Virus record (IMG/VR): IMGVR_UViG_3300034156_000030
Location: 1-57,263 of that record
DNA: 57,263 nucleotides
Direction: 5' to 3' (one strand)
From: a virus
Taxonomy: Duplodnaviria; Caudoviricetes
Part shown: positions 5,722 to 52,487 of the stretch, piece by piece
How positions within the stretch are numbered: the stretch's first letter is position 1
How the letters are laid out: the number at the start of each line of letters is the position of its first letter
Translations under genes and position numbers: made by a program
The notes under the pieces: model-generated
What the model saw: only the letters and a program-made list of their open reading frames with translations
What the model was told of the DNA's origin: nothing
Databases searched by the model: none

Positions 5722-8700
5722 TCAAAATGGCATACAATCGTAGCCTAATTTACATGAATTTGGTCCTGTACTATCTGTTGTCCAATTGATGCAGTTAACA
5801 CAATCAGTCTTTTTAGGACATTCCGGTAACCAAGGTGGAATATCATCAAAACCTATTGGCGCTAATTCTTGTTGCATTCTTTCTGGGTCATCAGATACAA
5901 ACCAATCAAAATCACCATATTTAGAAATATCTTCGACTGCACTATCAACTAATGTTTCATAATACGATAAATCTATATCAGAATTTCTATCTAATGATTT
6001 TACCATTTCTGCTTCTAACCATTTAAATCCTTTAGTTCCAGTAGCAGAATAATATTTATCATCTTTCATGCGATATAATGTTCCGCCACCACAACCAACT
6101 TTAATAGGACAAAATGCTCCAACTTTTCCGACGAAATGATATTCATGTTGTCCCTCTATAGTTTCATCCATGTCAATATATAAAGCGCCTTGACTCACAG
6201 ATTTAGTTTCACGCATATCTTCAAAACATAATTCTTCTTTAGAGAACAATGTTTTAAATACATAAGGCTGAGCAAATTGTGTTCCAGTAGCAGTCCAACC
6301 TCTTGATTCTATTAAATCTTTTGATTTAGATTCTTCCCAACCTTTAACCCGTGCAATATATACTGCATCGTTAACAAGACAGAATCTAGAATATGTGTCT
6401 TCCAATTCAAATTCATAACCATATTTTTTACCAAAAGCAAATATAAAGTCTATAATATCTGGGTCAGCATCTGGAATGGCTAATTTAATAGAATCTGTTT
6501 TGATGTGAATAGCTGCATAACCTTTCTCTTCAACTGCATATTTTAAGTCTATCATAAATAATGCACCACGTTTTGCAACTATGTTGTCTTTATTTCTAGG
6601 GTCTCTAAATGGATTTTCAAAAGAAGCTGATGTTAAACCATAAGCTGAATTAAGAGCAGTCTTTAATCCATTAGACACATCCTTTAAAGTAAACAAAGGT
6701 TTATCACTGAGTGCATTTTCAATAAATGGCCATATTTTACCATCAAGTAGAACTTTTAATGTATCAAAGTCTTTATGTTTAATTGCTATCCTACCTTTCT
6801 TTAAATCGGAATAATTTTTTGTATATGGGCCAAATAGATTTAATTCCTCTATACTGGTTGGGTGCATAGATGCTACATCAATAACAACTACATTAGAATA
6901 CATTCCAGGAATTGATTCTACATATCCACCCTCTCCAACTTCTATGCCTCGATAAGTACTTTTACCATTCTCAAATTTATATCCTGGAAACATAATACTT
7001 AAATCTGTATACACTAATTTATCTTGGGTCTTTCTATCCTTACCAAATACAATTCTAGTTGAGTGAGTGTTAGTTGTATCGTTAACTGTTAATCCACTTA
7101 ATGCAGCAAGAATTTGTCTAGCTGCCCAATCACCTGCTGTATAATTAAATACAGCTTCTGTAGCATCAACATCATTACCACAATAATCTGCAACTAAGTC
7201 CCACATATGTTCGGGTACTTCTTGGTCCCATGGTAAACCTAATTCTTGATGATGAATACCCAGTTTAATCTCCCACTTTTTAAGACTCATTTTATTACCA
7301 GCACTTAGATAATCATAAGCATCTGTATAAGATATATTATATGCTTCACCAAATAAACAATTTTTACTATCGCCAATAATCTTTTGAGATAGTAAATATA
7401 ATTGCTCATTCGAATATCCAATATATCTGGCATATAATATGTGATTATCATATCTCCGACAATTAAATCCTATTAATTTAAATTTCATTAACGCTTCAAC
7501 ATCTTTCGAAGAAGGGTTAATCATTTTAACTTTATTACCGCCTTTCTTTTTCCAAACAATTATAAATAGATTAGGAAATACTTCAACATCAAAAAATATT
7601 AAATCATCATTAATATATTCTTCTGTCGAATTGCTTATTTCTTCAGAAGCAAACTGCATTTTACTAATTAACTTAATACAATAGTCTGATTGATTACTTG
7701 AGTTATTAGCAAATGCTAAAATCTTCGGACGCATATCAGTCACATCATATTTTATACCTGATTTATAAGCATCCTCTAATATCTTTTGAATAAAGTCTAT
7801 AGATGGTTTTGTTCCTGGGTGTATTTCTTTGTGAAGATTTCGAGCAATTAAATCTCTTAAACCTTTTTCACTTTGAACAGCATTAAAATTTATCAATTTA
7901 CTATCTCCTTTCAAGGGTAGCCCACTATTGATAGTTGCAACTGGTGAGTTGTTGCACTTAGATAATTTTCTTCTCAACGAGGCTTGCCCGGTAAATATTT
8001 TTACTTCAATCCCTTCTGAATATACTCTACTTAATCTTTGTACATCACCATCATAAATATAATGAAGGTGTATGCCACCACCACTCTTACTAAATTCAGC
8101 ATAAGTTAGTGGCCATTTGCTAGCTTCTTCAATATTTAATTCAACTGATTTTTTACCAGAAGAATCTTTTAAGTCAAAATCTATTACTATGTGATTTTCT
8201 GGTGGTCTAACATAATGAATCTTTTTAGTATCAATACTTTTTAGTTTAATTTTTACTTTCTCCCATTTATTTTTAGGTATCTCTTCTTCTGTAGCATATT
8301 GTGCTTGACATTCAGATAATATTTCATCAATTATAGAATTAGTTTCTTCTAGAACAAAAGAAGCTTTTTTAATTATTTCAGATTTTTTATAAGTTTTATC
8401 ATGTAAAGCTTTACCTATAAAATCTTTATATACACTTCTTACTTGCTTATCGTCTATTCTAGTTACGTCATAAAATTCAAAGAAGTATGATTTTAACTCT
8501 TCTCTAAACTTATGCTTTTGCAGTTTATAAGTTATTAATGCTTCATCACAATATATTTTATACATAGAATATGCCTGTGATAATGTGGTCCATTCTTGTG
8601 ATTTAAAAACCTCATAACTATCTTCTACAAAATTGAAGAATATATCTGTTTGCATCATCATGTCTATTGGCTTATAATTAGAATAATATTTACTACCCAT

Positions 8701-13874: not shown

Positions 13875-14825
13875 TTAGACCTTTTGTACTGTGAAAAGAT
13901 CGTAGATAACTCCGTCGACATTAAAGTCAAGTAGGATACTATTTTCATGACCATTTACGAAATCTCTAGCTCTTGGTCTGTCGCCATCAAATATTCCGAA
14001 GTCGATGAAGTCATCACCAGCGCCTAGAACCCAACCAACAACTGCTCCAGCTTGAGACCTAGGAATTCCGAGAGAATCATATACTTCATTTAGGAATACA
14101 TGACCTCTTGCTCTTAACATGTCATTGAAGTAGTTCTGCTGAGCTTTTAAGAACATGAGATTATATTCTGCGGTTTTAGTCCACTGAGAACACATCTGAT
14201 CAAAGAATCTAGCATATGTGCTGAGGCCATTAGGGTCTTGTTCCACGATAGTTTTCTTTTCAGCTTTATGCTTAACACCATCAGTATCTGTGTAGGCGGC
14301 TTGAGTTATTTCATTAGCTCTTAGACCATTTTTATACATGTAGTCAGCTTGTTCTCCATGTTCCTCAACAACTCTCTTACGATATGCTGCAAAGCCCTCT
14401 TCAACCGCTTTAAAGGCTGCTACAAGAGCCAAATTTCTTTTCTTCATGATATTATGCCCACCAATTATACAGGCGATAGACGCGGCTCCTATAGCGATAG
14501 GAAGGCCATACAATTTTAGTAGTTCTGCGCCAGTTTGAAGATATGTTACCGCCAAATCTTTTCTTTTGTCGTTTTCAGTGTACTCATCTCTAGATATGGT
14601 TCCGTCTAATACCATATCCCAGCCCTCATGAACTTTATCAATCTTATCTTTATGTTCGTCTAAAACATACTCAATCTTTAGAGTTGCTTGACAAGCTAAC
14701 ACGGTTGATGTAATTATGCCGATTACACCAACTCCCAATAATAACTCAGGACTATTTTTTTGCAAGGCTAGTCCACTAGTACCCTTTAATTTAGCAAGAC
14801 CGTTCGTAACTTTTTCGAAATTCAT
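13875..14825 (-). CDS. DUF6353-like phage protein (paralog of 24909)
   Basis: KNSPELL.G.G, two hydrophobic helices, GHVFLNEVYDSLG, LDFNVDG motifs. Confidence 0.7.
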   Translation of the reverse strand: MNFEKVTNGLAKLKGTSGLALQKNSPELLLGVGVIGIITSTVLACQATLKIEYVLDEHKDKIDKVHEGWDMVLDGTISRDEYTENDKRKDLAVTYLQTGAELLKLYGLPIAIGAASIACIIGGHNIMKKRNLALVAAFKAVEEGFAAYRKRVVEEHGEQADYMYKNGLRANEITQAAYTDTDGVKHKAEKKTIVEQDPNGLSTYARFFDQMCSQWTKTAEYNLMFLKAQQNYFNDMLRARGHVFLNEVYDSLGIPRSQAGAVVGWVLGAGDDFIDFGIFDGDRPRARDFVNGHENSILLDFNVDGVIYDLFTVQKV

Positions 14826-14863: not shown

Positions 14864-14931
14864 AAAAAAGAAGAGTGTTGATTATTTTACTAATCTTGAT
14901 TCCTGTCTGCACATGGGAATCCATACTCTTC
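14864..14931 (-). ncRNA. Candidate structured small RNA A (three-way junction, ~68 nt)
   Basis: Starts immediately after a promoter motif; GAAGAGU/ACUCUUC closing stem, two internal hairpins, then a U6 tract; no RBS or ORF. Confidence 0.6.
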
Positions 14932-14956: not shown

Positions 14957-15157
14957 GTTTATTATAGTACTAATTGATTTTAACAATTCACACTTTCTGA
15001 AAAGTCTATTTCCTAAATCTTTTATATTATGTCGAAGTTTTGTTTTTGTTTCGGGTGCATTTGTTTCACCCACATTTGATAACTCGGTTTCTAGACTATC
15101 AATTTGTTTATCCAAATCAATTACATCATTTATTAACATTTCAATTTTATTAGTCAT
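14945..15157 (-). CDS. Small coiled-coil hypothetical protein
   Basis: AAGGAGG RBS. Confidence 0.6.
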   Translation of the reverse strand: MTNKIEMLINDVIDLDKQIDSLETELSNVGETNAPETKTKLRHNIKDLGNRLFRKCELLKSISTIINSQK

Positions 15158-24908: not shown

Positions 24909-25748
24909 TTATTTTGGATATTTGGGCGTTACAGTATAATTAAGGACTAAACAAGGTTCTCCATCTTGTGATAATTGAGTACTGAATGTGATTTCAATCA
25001 TACCTTTTTCTACATCCCAACCCATCTGTTCACCAAGTTGTATATCTGGCAATCCGAGTTTGTAATACAACTCATTTATTGAAAGGAACATAGAACTCAT
25101 CAAAGTATAATTCAACTCGTTTACCGTTCTACGAATCTTTTCTATATCACTACGGAAATATCGTCCACTTAAGCTGTCATAACACATAACTGAACCATTA
25201 CCTGTAATTAATACTTCGTTCGTAGAAACTGGATTCTTTTTTATTCTGTCTGCTGATATTTCATCACGGATTTTAGTTTCTTTGTTGGCTCCGATAGTTT
25301 CAATAACTTTAGTCTGATATTCCTTAAATGCTGCCTCTGTGATGCCATATATGCTCGCTAGGGCTGCATTACGACGAAGAGAAATATGATTAGCACCAAT
25401 TATACAGCCTATAGTTACTAAGCCTAATACGGTCGCTGGTACGTATTCTCTCCATGTAAGTTGTATGATTTCTTTTTTTGTTAACATATGAGTAGTATCA
25501 CTCCACGTATAACCTTCTTCAACTCCTAGCCATTCTTCAAAAGTAAGATGACTACTAATACTATCTTCTTCATACATATCATATATATGATTATCTACGA
25601 TAGATAAAGCTTTTGGTGTTGCTCGAATAGCCATTATAGTCGTACTTACAAGTCCAGCAACTGCCACACCTGTAAGAATAGTTGGACTATTTTTAGAAAT
25701 GACTCCACCGAGATTTTTTATCATTAGTGAAATATTTGTTAACTCCAT
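24909..25748 (-). CDS. DUF6353-like phage protein (paralog of 13875)
   Basis: KNSPTILTG, RATPKA, CYDSLSGRYF, SINELY..LGL. Confidence 0.7.
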   Translation of the reverse strand: MELTNISLMIKNLGGVISKNSPTILTGVAVAGLVSTTIMAIRATPKALSIVDNHIYDMYEEDSISSHLTFEEWLGVEEGYTWSDTTHMLTKKEIIQLTWREYVPATVLGLVTIGCIIGANHISLRRNAALASIYGITEAAFKEYQTKVIETIGANKETKIRDEISADRIKKNPVSTNEVLITGNGSVMCYDSLSGRYFRSDIEKIRRTVNELNYTLMSSMFLSINELYYKLGLPDIQLGEQMGWDVEKGMIEITFSTQLSQDGEPCLVLNYTVTPKYPK

Positions 25749-27119: not shown

Positions 27120-27217
27120 TATTTCACCTCCATTATTATGATTTATATATTAAATATAACCTTATTTTGACCTTAAAATAGGTTAAAAATGACCAAATTA
27201 ACAATAGGGCATATAGA

Positions 27218-27328
27218 AGCCATTTTAAGCGTTTTTACCCTTTACAGGTCATATTATATTACCTACTAATCAAAAGTGTCTTAGAATCAATCCTCAGAGG
27301 TCGTTTTTTCTAAAAGTGCGAAAAAAAT
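27218..27328. repeat. 111-bp direct repeat, copy 1 (palindromic core)
   Basis: Matches 30637-30747 with 3 mismatches by eye. Confidence 0.9.
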
Positions 27329-27397: not shown

Positions 27398-27454
27398 GTT
27401 AAATTCACATGATACTCACTCCTTTAATTACTTATGTGTGATATTAGAAAATAT

Positions 27455-27515
27455 AAAAAGTAAGTATAGATATTTAACTATCTAATTACGCACCTTACAT
27501 ACGTACTTACCTCTC
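27455..27515 (-). ncRNA. Candidate structured small RNA B (three-way junction, ~61 nt)
   Basis: Follows a promoter motif; GUAAGUA/UACUUAC closing stem, CGUAU/GUGCG and UAGAUA/UAUCUA hairpins, then a U tract. Confidence 0.6.
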
Positions 27516-27540
27516 ATTAGAGGATGTGTTTTTATCGCGA
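27513..27540 (-). promoter_or_regulatory. Phage promoter motif, copy 5
   Basis: TCGC GATAAAA AC ACATCC TCTAAT GAG. Confidence 0.75.
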
Positions 27541-27662
27541 GAATATTAAAAGTAATATGGAAAACATCATCAATGTTAATGCTAATGCTAATGCTATTAG
27601 AACTAATATAATTCCTTTAATAATATTATCAAAGAAGTTTTTAATATAATCATCTCCTTGTG

Positions 27663-27742
27663 AAAAAAAGAGTCTTCGGATTCGAACCGATTTCGCCATT
27701 ATTGCTAATGGTGTTTTACTTTTTTAAACTAGCTCACTCTTC
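27663..27742 (-). ncRNA. tRNA-like RNA with non-canonical anticodon arm and acceptor stem
   Basis: UA-GUUU...AAAC D arm, CCAUUA-GCAA-UAAUGG arm, UCGG-UUCGAAU-CCGA T arm, AAGAGU/ACUCUU end stem, U7 tract; no encoded CCA. Confidence 0.7.
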
Positions 27743-28228
27743 ACTATAGACTGTGTTATTCTTGCGATCTTGTATGAATACCCATTTACCAATATCTTGA
27801 AAATTAAAAGTTTCATAATGTCTTTCTCCCACATATGTAACTATAAAGGTATATTCATCCATTTGTGTGATTTTACCAAATCTCATTTTACTACCATTAT
27901 GAGGTTTCACACTAACTGAATCTCCAATAGAACAGACAGCCACTGCAAAGTGCATAAGATTTAATACTTTATCTTTTTTCTTCTGTATCATTTCTTTAAT
28001 AGAAACTGAATCACAATCCGTTACATATACGTCTTGTTTATCGCATTCCTCTTTAACTAGTTCATAGACAGCCCTAACGTCTATAAATTCTTGTTGCATT
28101 TTATCAACACTAGAGGGCTCTCGATTCCATTTGTTATCTATTCCAAAGCGTATAGCTTTAGAAGCTTCTTTTTGTAACTCACTACACTCTTCCATTAAAC
28201 AAACTAATAAATATTCTACTTTAGTCAT
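27734..28228 (-). CDS. MazG-like NTP pyrophosphohydrolase with C-terminal SH3-like domain
   Basis: LMEECSELQKEASKAIRFG...EFIDV (EExxE...ExxD). Confidence 0.7.
   Translation of the reverse strand: MTKVEYLLVCLMEECSELQKEASKAIRFGIDNKWNREPSSVDKMQQEFIDVRAVYELVKEECDKQDVYVTDCDSVSIKEMIQKKKDKVLNLMHFAVAVCSIGDSVSVKPHNGSKMRFGKITQMDEYTFIVTYVGERHYETFNFQDIGKWVFIQDRKNNTVYSEE
27740..27767 (-). promoter_or_regulatory. Phage promoter motif, copy 6 (drives the tRNA-like RNA)
   Basis: TCGC AAGAATA AC ACAGTC TATAGT GAA, embedded in the 3' end of the MazG-like ORF. Confidence 0.72.
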
Positions 28229-30562: not shown

Positions 30563-30636
30563 AATACATCAAATTAAGCCCTAAAAGACCCCTATTTTGA
30601 CCTAAAATAGACCAAATCAACGCTAAGGCCAATAGG

Positions 30637-30747
30637 AGCCATTTTAAGCGTTTTTACCCTTTACAGGTCATATTATATTACCTACTGATCAAAAGTGTCT
30701 TAGAATCAATCCTATGAGGTCGTTTTTTCTAAAAGTGCGAAAAAAAT
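30637..30747. repeat. 111-bp direct repeat, copy 2
   Basis: Matches 27218-27328 with 3 mismatches. Confidence 0.9.
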
Positions 30748-31399: not shown

Positions 31400-31747
31400 T
31401 TAAGAAAGCTTTGCGTCCTTATCAACTGCAAATACTACTCTATTTTTATCAGCCAAAGTACTCACATCATCTTTTACTTGTAATCTATAAATATCTTTAT
31501 TTGGGTCACTTGTATCTATTTGTAATGTGCCATGAGTGTCTGCCCCACTACTCTTATATGCAGACGAGCTTATTGCTAAGATTACATTTAAGAATATTGT
31601 CAATGCAGATATAGTACCTAATGTTTCCTGTCCATATGGTAGTCCCCAAATAGATGTCAATGTAAAATAAAAAGTGCCTGATGCTGGTAAAATATAAGCT
31701 ACAAACAATTTTAGAAAACTATAAACTTTATCATTAAATATCATCAT
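31400..31747 (-). CDS. Holin (Dp-1 family-like)
   Basis: N.KVY..LK.....LPA.GT.Y..L..IWGLPY.....GTI.A...FL...L.ISS..Y. Confidence 0.85.
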   Translation of the reverse strand: MMIFNDKVYSFLKLFVAYILPASGTFYFTLTSIWGLPYGQETLGTISALTIFLNVILAISSSAYKSSGADTHGTLQIDTSDPNKDIYRLQVKDDVSTLADKNRVVFAVDKDAKLS

Positions 31748-33960: not shown

Positions 33961-35927
33961 GTTACTGGAGTAACAACCATATCTTCAGCAACTAATTGAG
34001 TTATTCGTCCGTCGCCATCTTTAGTCCATGTGAACTTTACAATTTCATCACTATAGACTGCCTTGAATCCATTTGTATAGAAGTCTAGACTATCCAACTT
34101 ATATGGATGTAATATTATACCACCATTAGTTAGAGCTATTCTTCTTAATGTACCGTCCGTAGAAGTGTAGTAATCTAAATATAATCCGTCTGTACCTTTA
34201 TAGATGAACGCTTTTCCATTATCACCTACACCAGTTCCAGCACCTAATGTAAGTTTTGGAATATATGCGCCACTCTCATCATGAAAAGATTGTTCCATTT
34301 TGACGGTTTCGTTGTACTTATAAATATAAACAGGGAAGTCAGTAACAGTACTAGACATTACTTCTTTTTTGTCATTCATCCAATAACAAACTTCACCATT
34401 ATGATTTCTGTATGATTCAAAGTTATCAAAATGATTCGTAACATTCATAACAACATATTTAACTTTATAATCTCTCGCACCACCACTCATTTGGTAATAA
34501 GATGTGGAATTAAGTGCTCTATATTGTCGACCAGCTACAAAAGCATCCCAAGCGTTCATCTCGGCGCCATTTGAGAATATAATTTCACCAGTTGTTTGAT
34601 TGATGGATACACTCATATAATATGTATCAGTGAATGGGTCTAATGTCATATCCCATACGCCAGATATACCTTGTATTGCTGCATATAAAATAGCAATATA
34701 TGCTTGTATGAATTGTATTGTCTGACCTACTATTTTGATATAATTAACATCACTTGTATCACTATTAAGATATTTATGTATCTTAACTGATGTATCTAAC
34801 TGAGAAACTGTAAGTTCTGCTATATTACCATTATCAGCATATAGATTTGGTGTGATAAGTACATTTGGATGTAATATACCATCAAATATAAGTGACATTT
34901 CTGAATGTTCAGGGTCATTAACGTCCTCGTATTCAAAGTACATTCTATCTTTCCATACAGTGCCACTACCATCACCTGATTGAAATTTCATCTCATCTGC
35001 CCGAAAATACGACCGGGCTTTTTTGTCAGCTCGAACATTCTCGAAGCCAAATTCCGGACCTATTCGAGTTCCATTATAAAGTTTATCCTTAACAACAGTA
35101 GATGTTTCTATCCTATACAGATGTTCTGCTAAACCATTCACATATTTAGAAAATTGGAAAGTAACATCACTGATATCATAAACATTTCGATTAATGCTGA
35201 CAACTCTCAGACTCTCTCTAATATGTAATTCGTTTTGTATTAGTATTATTTCATCACCTATATTATAAACATCTCCAGGTAAATATATAGGAGTGCAAGT
35301 ATATGTTATGGTTGGATTACCGTCCTTATCACGTTGTCTTTTATTAATTTCTTTAGATATAATCTTGACATTACGATTTTTAATAGCAGGTTTAACTGAA
35401 GTAGAACCTCTATGATGAACTATTGATACTGTAAATTTATCAAATACAATATCACCTGCAAGATAAGCAACAAACTCCATTAAAGTTGCACGTCTACTTT
35501 TAGTTTCTTCAATAGAATAAGCAGTATTATCTTCAAACTCTACTGTACCAACCGTAAAGGGTGTATCTTCAAGAATCTTACCTAGGATATATGTTGGTGT
35601 TCCCAATTCTGCAAAGTATTCTAAGTTGTATAGTTCCTGATTCAAACGATATGATATATGTTCCGATTGTATTACTACGGAAAAGCTACCATCTTCGTTC
35701 GAATTTTTCTTAATATATGCCGTATCAAACCAATCATTATCAACCTCAAATATAGAATCTTCATTTATTAAATCACTTAATTTTTGATCTAATATTGCAT
35801 CAAAATCAAGAGTATTTTCACCGTTTAGCTCTTCAATACGATTAGAAGAAATGGTGCTTTTTATTATACCCAATCTTTCAAAACTAGTATTAAGTATTCT
35901 AATCATAACACCATTCCTCCTTATCAT
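33936..35927 (-). CDS. Tail-associated (Tal, prophage endopeptidase-like) protein
   Basis: EELNG.NTL.F, EHISY.L, ILE.TPFTVG.V; located downstream of Dit. Confidence 0.75.
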   Translation of the reverse strand: MIRRNGVMIRILNTSFERLGIIKSTISSNRIEELNGENTLDFDAILDQKLSDLINEDSIFEVDNDWFDTAYIKKNSNEDGSFSVVIQSEHISYRLNQELYNLEYFAELGTPTYILGKILEDTPFTVGTVEFEDNTAYSIEETKSRRATLMEFVAYLAGDIVFDKFTVSIVHHRGSTSVKPAIKNRNVKIISKEINKRQRDKDGNPTITYTCTPIYLPGDVYNIGDEIILIQNELHIRESLRVVSINRNVYDISDVTFQFSKYVNGLAEHLYRIETSTVVKDKLYNGTRIGPEFGFENVRADKKARSYFRADEMKFQSGDGSGTVWKDRMYFEYEDVNDPEHSEMSLIFDGILHPNVLITPNLYADNGNIAELTVSQLDTSVKIHKYLNSDTSDVNYIKIVGQTIQFIQAYIAILYAAIQGISGVWDMTLDPFTDTYYMSVSINQTTGEIIFSNGAEMNAWDAFVAGRQYRALNSTSYYQMSGGARDYKVKYVVMNVTNHFDNFESYRNHNGEVCYWMNDKKEVMSSTVTDFPVYIYKYNETVKMEQSFHDESGAYIPKLTLGAGTGVGDNGKAFIYKGTDGLYLDYYTSTDGTLRRIALTNGGIILHPYKLDSLDFYTNGFKAVYSDEIVKFTWTKDGDGRITQLVAEDMVVTPVTWHEEVMP

Positions 35928-49712: not shown

Positions 49713-52487
49713 TTATGGTGTAGTTTCTATTTCAAAATAATCTCCGATGTCTAAAGCTATACTGAAATAACCAGTTGTGGCACTATACCATACAAATTCT
49801 ACGCCTTTTCTTTCTTGTGAACCATTTAATATAACTTTGTATCCTTTTCCATTATTAAATGATGTGCCGTCACCACCAAGATTTATCAAAGATGCATCTC
49901 CAGAAATGGAAGCAACACCATTGGCTAAGCCCAAACCAGTTGTAACATCAAATAACTCAGCTGGTATAAATGCTGTAGTTACTTCATACTTACCTATTAA
50001 TGGAAAAGTTGGAGATGTAGAATGCCAAATATTTGTATGATGTACTCCATTAACATCTACAATGAAATCCATAGTTTTTCCACTATCTAATGTGAATATA
50101 TTGGCACCAGCATCGTTCCAATTTTTAATTAAAACTGGTTTAGACGATAAATTTATTATTATGGTTGTTGTGGCTAATAAAAAATCGAAGAATAAACGAT
50201 ATCCATCATTAGGTATGCCCGATAATGTTATTTGCTGTGCATTTAGTTGACTTGGACTTAATTGTGTATAATCTAAATTTGTTATGTCTATATACACATT
50301 TTTATTTGTTAAGTCGGTGTATGCTCCAGAAAAGAAGGTTTCTGGTAATGTTGGTTTATCTGTTAAAGCATTATAACTACTTAAAGTTAATTTTGTAACT
50401 GTGGTATAATTGAAGAATGATGCAACTTCAGCTAGTCCTAATGTTGATGTTCCACCAGAATTATCATTAGTTATTGTTGCAACGCCATCTGTATTATTAG
50501 CAATGGTGTATAATCTTTCAGTATCGCCACTTGCATTTGGTAAAAATACATTAAATGGTGCTGCAGGCATACCAAATAATATTATATCTGTTACATTTAA
50601 TTGATTGGCTGGTACAATAACATCTCCACCAGCACTACAATCCAATTGGAGAGTTTTTAGTCTTCCAACAGATTCAAGTATGGTAGTTCCGTCACTAAAC
50701 AATTCTCTAACTTCTCCAACTTGTATTGGTTTTGAACTACCTCCCAAATCGGTCCTAAACTGGATGTATCCACTGCTATTATTAAATACAGTAAACTTTT
50801 TTACAGTTCCAGCATAGGGTTTTACGTTAGCATGTGTTCCATAAGAACCTGTAAAGATTAAAGTATTAGCTTTACTTTGTTCTTCCGTCATTTGATAATT
50901 ACCACTGGTTATTTCTATAGTAAGTATATCTACCACAGATGATGGTTTACCAGTTAAGTCATTATATGATCCTGAAATTGCCACAGGTGCTAAGTTATCA
51001 TGGTTTGTAACTAGATTAACATTGCCTCCAGCAGAATCTATTACCAAAGTACCGTTAGTATTAGCGGCTAATGTTGGTAATACCTGTGGTAAATAATTCT
51101 TATTTTTAATTGATATGGCATGATTAGTACGATTATACAATAGAATATGAGTTTCTATAGTCAAATCAAATTCTAAATCAACAACATCATCTGGTGTACC
51201 GTTTATATATAATGTATTCATTTTTTGTTCTGTAGGTGTTAATATTATTGCATCGTGTCCGTTAGGTATATATTTAGTCGCCGAGGTATTGGTAAGATCG
51301 CTATAGTTTCCAGAAAACCTAAATCCTACATGACATGAACCACTCAAATCAATGGCTATATCTATAGCCGAATTAGATGCTAAACTAAACAATTCCACAT
51401 TTCCATTTATTCTTATAGAGATTGTTTTTGATGATTCGTTAATTATAACAGCATTTGTCTGAACCGCAGTGTCTAATATTACTTGAAAATCATCTACAGG
51501 TGTGCCAGTTAATACTATTTTAGATGCACCTTGTTGAATTGCATTTAAACTAGTAGAGCTACCAGATGAAATATCTATTTCAATATTAGCATATATTAGA
51601 TCAACTAATCTTCCTGAGAACAATGATGGCTTATTGGTCAAATCATTATAATTACCCGAAAATCCAGCTTCAACAATACCTGTATGATTATCATAGAGTA
51701 CTGTTTTTACACCCCATGAAGGAATTATAACTGCCGGGCCAGATGGAAAATCAACTGACTTTATTGTAGCCACTTCTGGACCTGCATTTATAAATGTTAC
51801 TGGTGCGTAATTACCATTAGTCATTATAACATCAAATGGATTGGTCATTGCATAACCGTCTAGGTATAAACAGTTATATGATTCATCTTCTGCTGTTAGA
51901 TGTGTTACAGTTTGTGGATTCATGAATTTAGTTTTATTAAATCCACCATTCATAGCAATTATTTCTGTATATGTTGGTGTTAAACCAATATTTCCTTGAG
52001 GACCTGTTTCTCCTTGAATACCCTGAGCGCCCTGAGGACCTGTTTCTCCTTGAATACCCTGAATACCTTGGGCTCCAGTTTCTCCTTGAACGCCTTGAAT
52101 ACCCTGAGCGCCTTGAATACCTATTTCTCCTTGAATACCTTGGGGACCTTGAGTACCTGGTTCGCCTGGAATATCACTACTTGCTCCTTGAATACCTTGA
52201 ATACCTTGAATACCTTGAATACCTTGCGCTCCAGTTTCTCCTTGAGGACCTTGAACCCCCTGAGGACCTATTTCTCCTTGAACTCCCTGTATGCCTTGAG
52301 GACCTATTTCTCCTTGAACTCCCTGTATGCCTTGAGGACCTATTTCTCCTTGAGGTCCAACTGTGCCACCACTTTCATTTAATTCTTCTATTGTTGCTTC
52401 TAATTCATCACCAAGTCTAACCGATGCATTTCTTACTCTTGATAAATCATTCATTGCTTTGATTTCTTTCGGTGTTAATTGTTCCAT
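49713..52487 (-). CDS. Collagen-like fibre protein with repeated SGxYxDL modules
   Basis: Long Gly-X-Y run (GPQGIQGE...) followed by beta domains separated by FSGNYNDLTNKP-like linkers. Confidence 0.8.
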   Translation of the reverse strand: MEQLTPKEIKAMNDLSRVRNASVRLGDELEATIEELNESGGTVGPQGEIGPQGIQGVQGEIGPQGIQGVQGEIGPQGVQGPQGETGAQGIQGIQGIQGIQGASSDIPGEPGTQGPQGIQGEIGIQGAQGIQGVQGETGAQGIQGIQGETGPQGAQGIQGETGPQGNIGLTPTYTEIIAMNGGFNKTKFMNPQTVTHLTAEDESYNCLYLDGYAMTNPFDVIMTNGNYAPVTFINAGPEVATIKSVDFPSGPAVIIPSWGVKTVLYDNHTGIVEAGFSGNYNDLTNKPSLFSGRLVDLIYANIEIDISSGSSTSLNAIQQGASKIVLTGTPVDDFQVILDTAVQTNAVIINESSKTISIRINGNVELFSLASNSAIDIAIDLSGSCHVGFRFSGNYSDLTNTSATKYIPNGHDAIILTPTEQKMNTLYINGTPDDVVDLEFDLTIETHILLYNRTNHAISIKNKNYLPQVLPTLAANTNGTLVIDSAGGNVNLVTNHDNLAPVAISGSYNDLTGKPSSVVDILTIEITSGNYQMTEEQSKANTLIFTGSYGTHANVKPYAGTVKKFTVFNNSSGYIQFRTDLGGSSKPIQVGEVRELFSDGTTILESVGRLKTLQLDCSAGGDVIVPANQLNVTDIILFGMPAAPFNVFLPNASGDTERLYTIANNTDGVATITNDNSGGTSTLGLAEVASFFNYTTVTKLTLSSYNALTDKPTLPETFFSGAYTDLTNKNVYIDITNLDYTQLSPSQLNAQQITLSGIPNDGYRLFFDFLLATTTIIINLSSKPVLIKNWNDAGANIFTLDSGKTMDFIVDVNGVHHTNIWHSTSPTFPLIGKYEVTTAFIPAELFDVTTGLGLANGVASISGDASLINLGGDGTSFNNGKGYKVILNGSQERKGVEFVWYSATTGYFSIALDIGDYFEIETTP
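51990..52360. repeat. Collagen-coding tandem repeats (9/27-bp period)
   Basis: ccttgaata and ccttgaggacctatttct repeats on the plus strand. Confidence 0.9.

Follow-up and report, generated by a model that had tools for sequence, protein, structure and literature searches.

The virus record IMGVR_UViG_3300034156_000030 (57,263 nucleotides (nt), about 96% complete, GC content of about 32%) was analyzed over its full length, referred to here as the window. On the minus strand, which carries all long open reading frames (ORFs) of the window, a 73-nt element at positions 27738–27666 has the shape of a tRNA without an anticodon loop. Very probably, this element is a genuine member of a conserved family of structured RNAs. 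It appears to be a separately promoted small-RNA gene in siphophages that carry, at the genome end, the gene of a polymerase that resembles RNA-dependent RNA polymerases (RdRPs) and bears a helix-turn-helix (HTH) motif. A hairpin with a GNRA cap closes the anticodon arm, so that the RNA cannot decode. We lean toward the view that this conserved small-RNA gene would give rise, from a phage promoter, to a trans-acting mimic of the tRNA body that engages a host factor reading tRNA shape.

The register of the element was defined with R1, a covariance model (CM) built from the element of Rhodococcus phage ReqiPoco6 alone. In this alignment, the acceptor 5′ strand AGUGAGC (27738–27732) is followed by U8 and A9 (27731–27730), by the D arm GUUU/AAAAAAGUA/AAAC (27729–27713), and by A26. 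The D arm was assigned by alignment to the ReqiPoco6 D arm and by the minimum free energy (MFE) fold; its loop has 9 nt, as in ReqiPoco6, and contains a single G and no GG. In the arm at the anticodon position (27711–27696), sequence and folds both show CCAUUA pairing with UAAUGG around the loop GCAA (27705–27702), and the same geometry of 6 bp plus GCAA is found in ReqiPoco6. After the variable region CGAAA (27695–27691), the T arm UCGG/UUCGAAU/CCGA (27690–27676) agrees with the T-loop consensus and the G53–C61 pair of canonical tRNAs; its stem has 4 bp, and the fifth position would be an A-A mismatch. The acceptor 3′ strand G[A]CUCUUU (27674–27667) runs into a stretch of seven U (27669–27663), which is not followed by CCA. 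Six standard pairs (including two terminal ones of the type G-U or A-U), a single bulge, and a U-U mismatch at position 3–70 make up the acceptor helix. The letters quoted in a preliminary description of the element correspond exactly to minus-strand positions 27745–27660, and its account of tRNA-like D and T arms, a perfect 6-bp stem with a GNRA cap, a U tract, and a missing CCA was confirmed in sequence and fold. Its acceptor register, GAAGAGU/ACUCUUU with a 6-nt linker, was wrong; the homolog alignment gives AGUGAGC/G[A]CUCUUU and then U8 and A9. Since the corrected register removes the linker, the 5′ half is less irregular than had been described.

The unconstrained MFE fold of a 91-nt stretch was a four-arm cloverleaf (−19.4 kcal/mol, z −2.1, 4 of 200 shuffles as good) and agreed with the CM register of the element; for an 89-nt stretch, z was −2.6. 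The T-arm core GGTTCGAATCC, an 11-mer, occurs a single time in the window and was found in 0 of 100 shuffles. Because this 11-mer is unique and the MFE fold is a cloverleaf, the resemblance to tRNA is beyond chance. R1 was run with filters off over the window and six loci (74 kb) and matched the element at 27738–27666 with 23.7 bits (E 1.6e-4), the next window match having 7.4 bits (E 8.2). As judged from these alignments of sequence and structure, the element is homologous to that of ReqiPoco6. A chance resemblance in coding or intergenic sequence, or the attP half of a tRNA integration site, is hardly credible. The element is overlapped by a 55-residue ORF (27699–27532) and by the end of a 164-residue ORF, and phage attachment sites often copy the 3′ halves of tRNAs. 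However, the R1 E value comes from a model of one sequence from another phage, the window has no second copy of the T-arm 11-mer, and the genes of the record all lie on one strand. The attP reading was rejected on two grounds: no integrase was found in the record (0 matches to PF00589), and the full cloverleaf with both halves is present, not just the 3′ part of a tRNA.

Standard tRNA detectors missed the element. A pseudo or undetermined call had been expected in the preliminary description; ARAGORN called no tRNA for the element and 0 tRNA genes in the window. A standard anticodon arm (5 bp, 7-nt loop, and U33) was found in no register of the element, either by hand or by ARAGORN. Rfam yielded nothing in the window at the gathering score and no tRNA match within 27400–28000 at E values up to 10, where the four matches listed were microRNA and small nucleolar RNA noise. 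The Rfam tRNA model RF00005, which has a gathering threshold of 29 bits, gave 0 matches over the whole record, with three candidates scored.

Homologs were found in the phage clade of the polymerase. When RF00005 was run on 10 named phages of the clade (E up to 0.1), exactly one match was obtained in each of five, with 28.9–42.6 bits and four of the five above the 29-bit cutoff. The members are Gordonia phage Kenosha, Rhodococcus phage ReqiPoco6, Lactococcus phages P078 and CHPC971, and the oral Caudovirus D_HF5_2C. All five matches lie mid-genome, 3–22 nt past a copy of the clade promoter described below, and all five have the acceptor followed by a U run. The window element forms the same unit: the −10-like TATAGT of its promoter copy ends 4 nt before the RNA, and the acceptor leads into the U run. 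The flanks of Kenosha, ReqiPoco6, and P078, as read by eye, contain behind the U run another promoter copy, which is accompanied by a Shine-Dalgarno sequence and an ATG. GenBank labels the ReqiPoco6 copy only as "tRNA-OTHER". In Gordonia cluster DJ, 39 records matched the element region, 33 of which have it at 85–100% identity with a query coverage of at least 80%, and it is annotated in none of them; in the record of Gordonia phage Vardy, it is 96.9% identical to Kenosha. A further model, R2, gave a single match in the window and no significant match in eight more named phages (Qui, GantcherGoblin, Correa, Scarif, Bing, Yotsuba, FrodoSwaggins, and DoctorPepper; best E values of 0.027 and 0.085). 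Among the metagenomic relatives found through the polymerase, G005 contains two units of promoter, tRNA-like fold, and U run (RF00005, 31.9 and 22.7 bits), both followed by a fresh promoter. One of them has the arm CUC-GAAA-GAG and an extra hairpin UCCA-GAGA-UGGA. The two units were found by RF00005 alone and missed by R1 and R2, and they are not counted as proven homologs. Relative G003 has two ordinary tRNAs at the contig start (70.8 and 55.7 bits).

The anticodon arm of the named members was parsed from the aligned letters. It consists of 6 bp and GCAA in the window and in ReqiPoco6, 4 bp and GCAA in Kenosha, 4 bp and UUAU in P078, 3 bp and 6 nt in CHPC971, and a long closed arm in D_HF5_2C. 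The standard arm of 5 bp and 7 nt thus occurs in 0 of 6 members, and GCAA is common to three. In the alignment of these six divergent members, 94.3% of the cells were paired and 18 of 22 pairs had changes on both sides, values reached by 0 of 500 shuffles and compared with 36–51% for slid registers, although alignments fitted to the model favor pairing. All six pairs of the anticodon stem covary. Model-based alignments were used instead of two MAFFT alignments (A1 and A2), which placed the 5′ halves wrongly. Eight variants from Gordonia cluster DJ carry the loops GCAA (five), GAAA (two), and ACAA (one), so that seven of eight are GNRA loops. The closing pair changes from C-G to U-A with compensation, and three T-stem pairs covary. 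The D, anticodon, and T stems of these variants are 100% paired, whereas the acceptor is 78% paired and has indels, which suggests that selection acts on the body and the capped stump and not on the 3′ end. Across the clade of the polymerase, conservation is lowest in the acceptor (78–87% paired, with bulges and indels and no CCA).

These comparisons bear on the possibility that the element is a decaying tRNA pseudogene, for example of a tRNA-Cys(GCA) without U33, which had kept its promoter and terminator and lost its function. The arm of 6 bp and GCAA is one base short of 5 bp and a 7-nt loop with GCA-A, so that a single deletion could suffice; in addition, the D arm and T stem of the window copy are degraded, and true tRNAs occur in the relative G003. 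On the other hand, the closed arm recurs in distant phages with different stems and lengths, the compensatory change and the GNRA loops are maintained in cluster DJ, and the stems covary rather than erode. Further evidence comes from two viral tRNA arrays described below, in which the tetraloop member is no nearer to the local tRNA-Cys or other tRNAs than 0.68–0.69 identity. Decay of a pseudogene is improbable on this evidence. The proposal of the preliminary description, a non-decoding tRNA-shaped RNA rather than a decayed tRNA-Cys(GCA), is supported by the relatives with closed or shortened arms. The homolog search that it had suggested for the tetraloop stem showed the hairpin kept in cluster DJ with a compensated closing pair, and close homologs in the form of canonical tRNAs with 7-nt loops did not appear among those found.

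The preliminary description had also assigned the element its own phage promoter. The copy in question extends over minus-strand positions 27767–27739, with TCGCA at 27767–27763, a −10-like TATAGT at 27748–27743, and a conserved GAAG at 27742–27739. It falls within the last 12 codons of the 164-residue ORF, and TATAGT ends 4 nt before position 1 of the RNA. The motif first emerged as the repeat families D2, D4, and D6, and an 18-mer around the −10 site recurs at 34061–34044 with three mismatches (0.06 expected by chance). The regular expression TCGC[A/G]-N-AAC/ACA-N-TATAATGAR found 10 copies on the minus strand of the window (31366, 31120, 30561, 30327, 30029, 27766, 22977, 19411, 14955, and 3921) and 0 on the plus strand. 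As a repeated motif the promoter is therefore real, and it would probably be used as such. Most copies precede a Shine-Dalgarno sequence and an ATG by 15–25 nt. The relatives G001–G005 also have the motif, with the same strand specificity (GC content 35–53%; G000–G005 span 32–53%). In the available parts of its genome announcement, Gordonia phage Vardy is described as having a 50-bp intergenic TATAAT motif in five copies between genes 39 and 55, mid-genome, which its authors take as a −10 site of host sigma-70 (PMC9671010). By this description, the 50-bp motif probably represents the clade promoter, which for the Gordonia DJ phages has been published under that name only.

The polymerase is an 881-residue protein encoded at 349–2994 on the minus strand, which matched phrog_4291, "RNA-dependent RNA polymerase", with 1207.9 bits. 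It has an HTH resembling sigma-70 region 4 at residues 74–106 and a weak RdRP match of 17.9 bits, below the cutoff. A polymerase homolog was present in 250 phage records, all with <60% identity, from phages of Arthrobacter, Gordonia, Streptomyces, Lactococcus, and Rhodococcus and from oral siphoviruses. The polymerase placed the phage of the window in this broad clade, with which it shares a polymerase at the genome end, a primase-polymerase (phrog_4210 match at 1895.9 bits among the window proteins), and genes on one strand. Since the motif is conserved across phages of hosts with very different GC contents, we infer that it would be read by the 881-residue protein; the protein and the strand-specific motif are a candidate polymerase/promoter pair for the whole clade. 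The ReqiPoco6 homolog is annotated "structural protein". This label, which is not a test, would fit a virion-borne polymerase and early use.

In the proposed mechanism, the clade promoter would start the RNA a few bases before the acceptor strand, and the acceptor helix and U run would end it. In the window, the acceptor helix closes the branched fold and is directly followed by U7, where termination may occur; a scan for the intrinsic-terminator consensus on the minus strand found no site at the element. The RNA would then occupy or divert a host factor that recognizes tRNA shape, such as a processing or modifying enzyme or a tRNA-directed defense protein. Without an anticodon loop, it would stay outside translation and give no loop to cut. 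An action in trans is favored by the kept D and T arms and stump, by the freely varying acceptor, and by the occurrence of most members as promoter-terminator units of their own. The anticodon is what anticodon nucleases and T-box leaders recognize. Because the RNA has none, a decoy for such readers is the less likely version of the proposal, and enzymes that read the elbow or body are plausible targets.

Another rival is a substrate matured at the acceptor end, in which trimming by RNase P and RNase Z, addition of CCA, and perhaps aminoacylation would let the RNA serve or block a non-decoding process at the 3′ end. Precursors of CCA-less tRNAs are processed from a short leader and a U-rich trailer after position 73, and the element has a very short leader and a U-rich trailer right after this position. 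Among the tetraloop-capped tRNA-like folds in tRNA arrays of unrelated viral contigs, three (L106, L118, and L168) encode a CCA, and their acceptors were read as paired throughout. However, the clade acceptor is the least conserved part, with its incomplete pairing, bulges, indels, and lack of CCA; that of the window has a bulge and a U-U mismatch. A CCA-adding enzyme of the phage was considered and rejected, as none is encoded. We give this explanation little credence.

The main rival to a trans-acting mimic is a leader acting in cis, either as an attenuator or terminator after the phage promoter or as a cleavage signal for RNase P or RNase Z, which would determine how much of the downstream mRNA for a small membrane protein is present or where its 5′ end lies. 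Its appeal lies in the arrangement of the window, CHPC971, and D_HF5_2C, where the U run leads to the next Shine-Dalgarno sequence without a new promoter. Moreover, other promoter copies of the window are followed by a branched structure that is closed by a stem, with a U run (14931–14864, MFE frequency 0.55, z −3.3; about 27517–27450, z −3.5), similar arrangements occur in related genomes, and the unit at 14931 shares the GAAGAGU...ACUCUUCUUUUUUCAC frame. However, a plain hairpin would suffice for such a role, and the T loop, D arm, and GNRA arm are kept across phages of different bacterial phyla. The other leaders of the window are not tRNA-like, R2 having only its single match there. In Kenosha, ReqiPoco6, P078, and both G005 units, the fresh promoter after the U run indicates a stand-alone RNA. 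We regard a cis leader as unlikely, and pseudogene decay and a role of the acceptor end as less likely still.

Several observations weigh against the trans-acting mimic, which we nevertheless prefer. In the window, CHPC971, and D_HF5_2C, the flanks read by eye show the Shine-Dalgarno sequence of the next gene after the U run and no new promoter; the missing second promoter in the window and in two of the five homologs fits a role in cis as well. The family is patchy: 5 of 18 named clade phages were positive and 13 of 18 had no significant match, and no element was found in the metagenomic relatives G001, G002, and G004. The window copy is the most divergent member, with no GG in the D loop, a D stem of A and U only, a 4-bp T stem, and a bulged acceptor with a U-U mismatch, and this copy may be in decay within a functional family. 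Because no close relative of the phage was found in the collections, the conservation of the window copy itself cannot be judged. The fitting of the covariation alignments to the model belongs here, too. Finally, ARAGORN calls the ReqiPoco6 element tRNA-Ala(AGC), a reading that by count requires the register to be shifted, so that the loop has 7 nt and C at position 33. Because of this call, the absence of an anticodon loop in the ReqiPoco6 member is not beyond dispute.

The searches for closer relatives covered several collections. Neither blastn nor tblastn against the phage collection returned a match to the element region or to the 164-residue protein. Scans of IMG/VR gave one N-terminal match only for the 164-residue protein, none for a 257-residue protein, and 11 loci with 43–55% identity for a 177-residue protein; these 11 loci contained no tRNA according to ARAGORN and no copy of the T-arm 11-mer. 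A metagenome scan with the 164-residue protein gave five distant N-terminal matches only. The nearest polymerase relatives in IMG/VR had 65–70% identity and lay on short contigs of 4–10 kb. RF00005 was run on 13 records, obtained through the 164- and 177-residue proteins and including the two nearest polymerase contigs, and found ordinary tRNAs only, in 5 of 13, which is uninformative for the family. A gapped DNA pattern derived from the element matched nothing but two true tRNAs, both unrelated. DNA contigs over the element came from the source sample and from a second peat-metagenome sample, whose 239-nt contig was identical over 27578–27816 and offered no variation; among the sequencing runs listed, none of RNA contained the stretch.

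Beyond the clade, IMG/VR was searched with the pattern GTAGCTCAG-N4-9-GAGC-N5-7-GCAA, which excludes normal tRNAs since position 33 would be U. The pattern matched at least 120 stretches, and 80 loci were examined. Among these, eight matches passed a script requiring a stem of at least 3 bp closing GCAA and a downstream T-loop motif. From this set L162 was dropped, as its T motif is too far away, and L106, whose T loop was missed by the regular expression, was added by eye. The eight convincing cases among the loci examined are L106, L116, L118, L141, L144, L168, L170, and L157, the last being ReqiPoco6. Several of them lie in tRNA arrays of unrelated viral contigs, including very large ones (332 and 424 kb). 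The acceptors of L106, L118, and L168 are fully paired as read and are followed by an encoded CCA, and ARAGORN labels four cases "tRNA-???" with "anticodons" of two or four bases. In bacterial and archaeal genomes, the same pattern yielded two such cases among at least 90 matches in the 80 loci listed. An origin of the tetraloop members from a neighboring tRNA-Cys was considered and rejected for two viral arrays, in which the identity to the local tRNA-Cys or to any local tRNA was at most 0.68–0.69. On the L106 contig, ARAGORN also reported a tmRNA-like gene (2638–2988) and two tRNAs with CTA anticodons, the amber suppressor type (7297–7373 and 7508–7583).

A broader reading, which we offer tentatively, is that tRNA bodies with GNRA-capped stumps form a widespread, unannotated class of phage small RNAs that would be decoys for a host protein recognizing tRNA shape, in counter-defense or host takeover. 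Within the clade, they would be transcribed from promoters of the phage itself, perhaps early and by a virion-borne polymerase. The protein bound could be a toxin of tRNA-directed abortive infection, an enzyme of tRNA modification, or RNase P or RNase Z. Independently, tRNA arrays of large phages show this design with CCA ends and with acceptor stems read as fully paired (L106, L118, and L168).

The genes around the element were read from the minus strand. The upstream 164-residue ORF (28228–27734) resembles nucleoside triphosphate (NTP) pyrophosphohydrolases over residues 1–65 (phrog_4856, E 1.9e-9), and its TGA stop codon (27736–27734) sits in the acceptor 5′ strand. The downstream unit (27659–27532) begins with AAGGAG at 27659–27654 and contains the frame of a small membrane protein. 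A candidate start is an in-frame ATT at 27645–27643, 8 nt past the Shine-Dalgarno sequence; the other is the ATG at 27699 of the listed 55-residue ORF (27699–27532), which lies inside the RNA. No second promoter is present between the U run and this gene. The neighborhood encodes small membrane proteins, the NTP pyrophosphohydrolase-like protein, a dATP/dGTP pyrophosphohydrolase, a dUTPase, and NrdD/G, and a holin is encoded upstream of the element at 31400–31747.

Other structured or repetitive features were observed in the window. At 14971–14864 on the minus strand, a promoter copy is followed by a sequence that folds into a three-way junction (14931–14864; MFE −18.4 kcal/mol, ensemble frequency 0.55, z −3.3), which starts with GAAGAGU and ends with ACUCUUCUUUUUUCAC like the element and was not found tRNA-like by the models. 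It precedes a gene of phrog_2152, a family without known function, which has two paralogs on the minus strand (13875–14825 and 24909–25748; E 5e-80 and 1.5e-81). At 27540–27450, again on the minus strand, TCGCG...CTAATGAGA, a weaker promoter-like sequence, shares positions with the end of the small ORF; the branched fold at about 27517–27450 (z −3.5) is closed by GGUAAGUA/UACUUAC and has a U-rich run. A 145-nt direct repeat with 92% identity occurs in two non-coding copies, 27184–27328, within the 410 nt that separate the small ORF from the 257-residue gene, and 30603–30747. In the source sample, this repeat is a point at which assembly contigs break or are joined. A periodic array with 9-, 27-, and 36-nt spacing (12 copies of a 120-nt register) at 51958–52413 lies in a gene for a 924-residue tail fiber with collagen-like matches.

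In the literature searches, no description of such a family without anticodon was found in the accessible parts of the sources retrieved (including PMC5389517, PMC7824862, PMC9671010, and PMC12859696). As far as these searches show, a conserved phage gene for a tRNA body with a closed-off anticodon is previously undescribed. Non-coding RNAs that mimic tRNA are already known in the form of tmRNA, RNAs resembling Y RNA, and viral tRNA-like structures. Since some phages with the family (on Gordonia and Lactococcus) are amenable to culture and engineering, the role of a non-decoding tRNA shape is directly testable. As a decoy for tRNA-directed immunity, the RNA would be a form of counter-defense based on RNA; as a cis signal, it would show the punctuation of the unusual polymerase of the clade. 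The family also points to a gap in phage annotation, where tRNA finders overlook such RNAs.

Among the known systems, the tRNA-like domain of tmRNA keeps the acceptor/T-arm half and has no anticodon. The element likewise keeps the tRNA part without an anticodon. It differs from tmRNA in having no tag reading frame and no pseudoknots, a U-U instead of the G-U alanine mark at position 3–70, and a full D arm with a stump of the anticodon stem; no tmRNA was found in the window by ARAGORN or Rfam. In YrlA, a non-coding mimic of the tRNA body that is bound by Ro60/Rsr, the D and T arms are conserved, a usable CCA end is missing, and the ends lie on the side of the anticodon stem. The mimicry of the body with D and T arms and without a usable CCA is shared by the element. 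The topology is opposite, however, as the ends of the element form the acceptor helix and its anticodon arm is closed. An Rfam match is also lacking, and a Ro60 partner was rejected because the phage has no TROVE/Ro60 gene (0 matches to PF05731). The t-elements, viral tRNA-like structures, and mascRNA are non-decoding tRNA-shaped folds that stand beside mRNA as signals for RNase P and RNase Z, at the ends of mRNAs or genomes. The element resembles them as a non-decoding tRNA-shaped fold beside an mRNA. Unlike the units described here, they are not separate promoter-terminator units; a fresh promoter follows in three of the five named homologs and in both G005 units.

Two further cases come from the literature. 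The tRNA-Other of Bacillus cereus is presented, in the portion of the source available, as a pseudo-tRNA charged by a LysRS1:LysRS2 complex (PMC5389517). Like the element, it is a tRNA-like small RNA thought to be active outside normal decoding; unlike the phage gene reported here, it is chromosomal. For Vardy, the 50-bp motif corresponds by its description to the repeated, mid-genome TATAAT promoter-like motif of the clade. The RNA is unmentioned in the accessible text of the announcement, which states "No tRNAs were identified", yet the record holds the element region (PMC9671010). As far as the text of these sources is available, two cluster DJ announcements, that of Vardy among them, report no tRNA genes (PMC9671010). 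Compared with canonical phage tRNAs (RF00005), the element lacks the 7-nt anticodon loop, U33, and CCA, has a bulged acceptor, and was missed by both RF00005 and ARAGORN. It shares with them the cloverleaf, U8 and A9, the D arm, a 5-nt variable region, the UUCGAAU T arm, and the nature of a small phage gene, and its homologs score 28.9–42.6 bits on the tRNA model.

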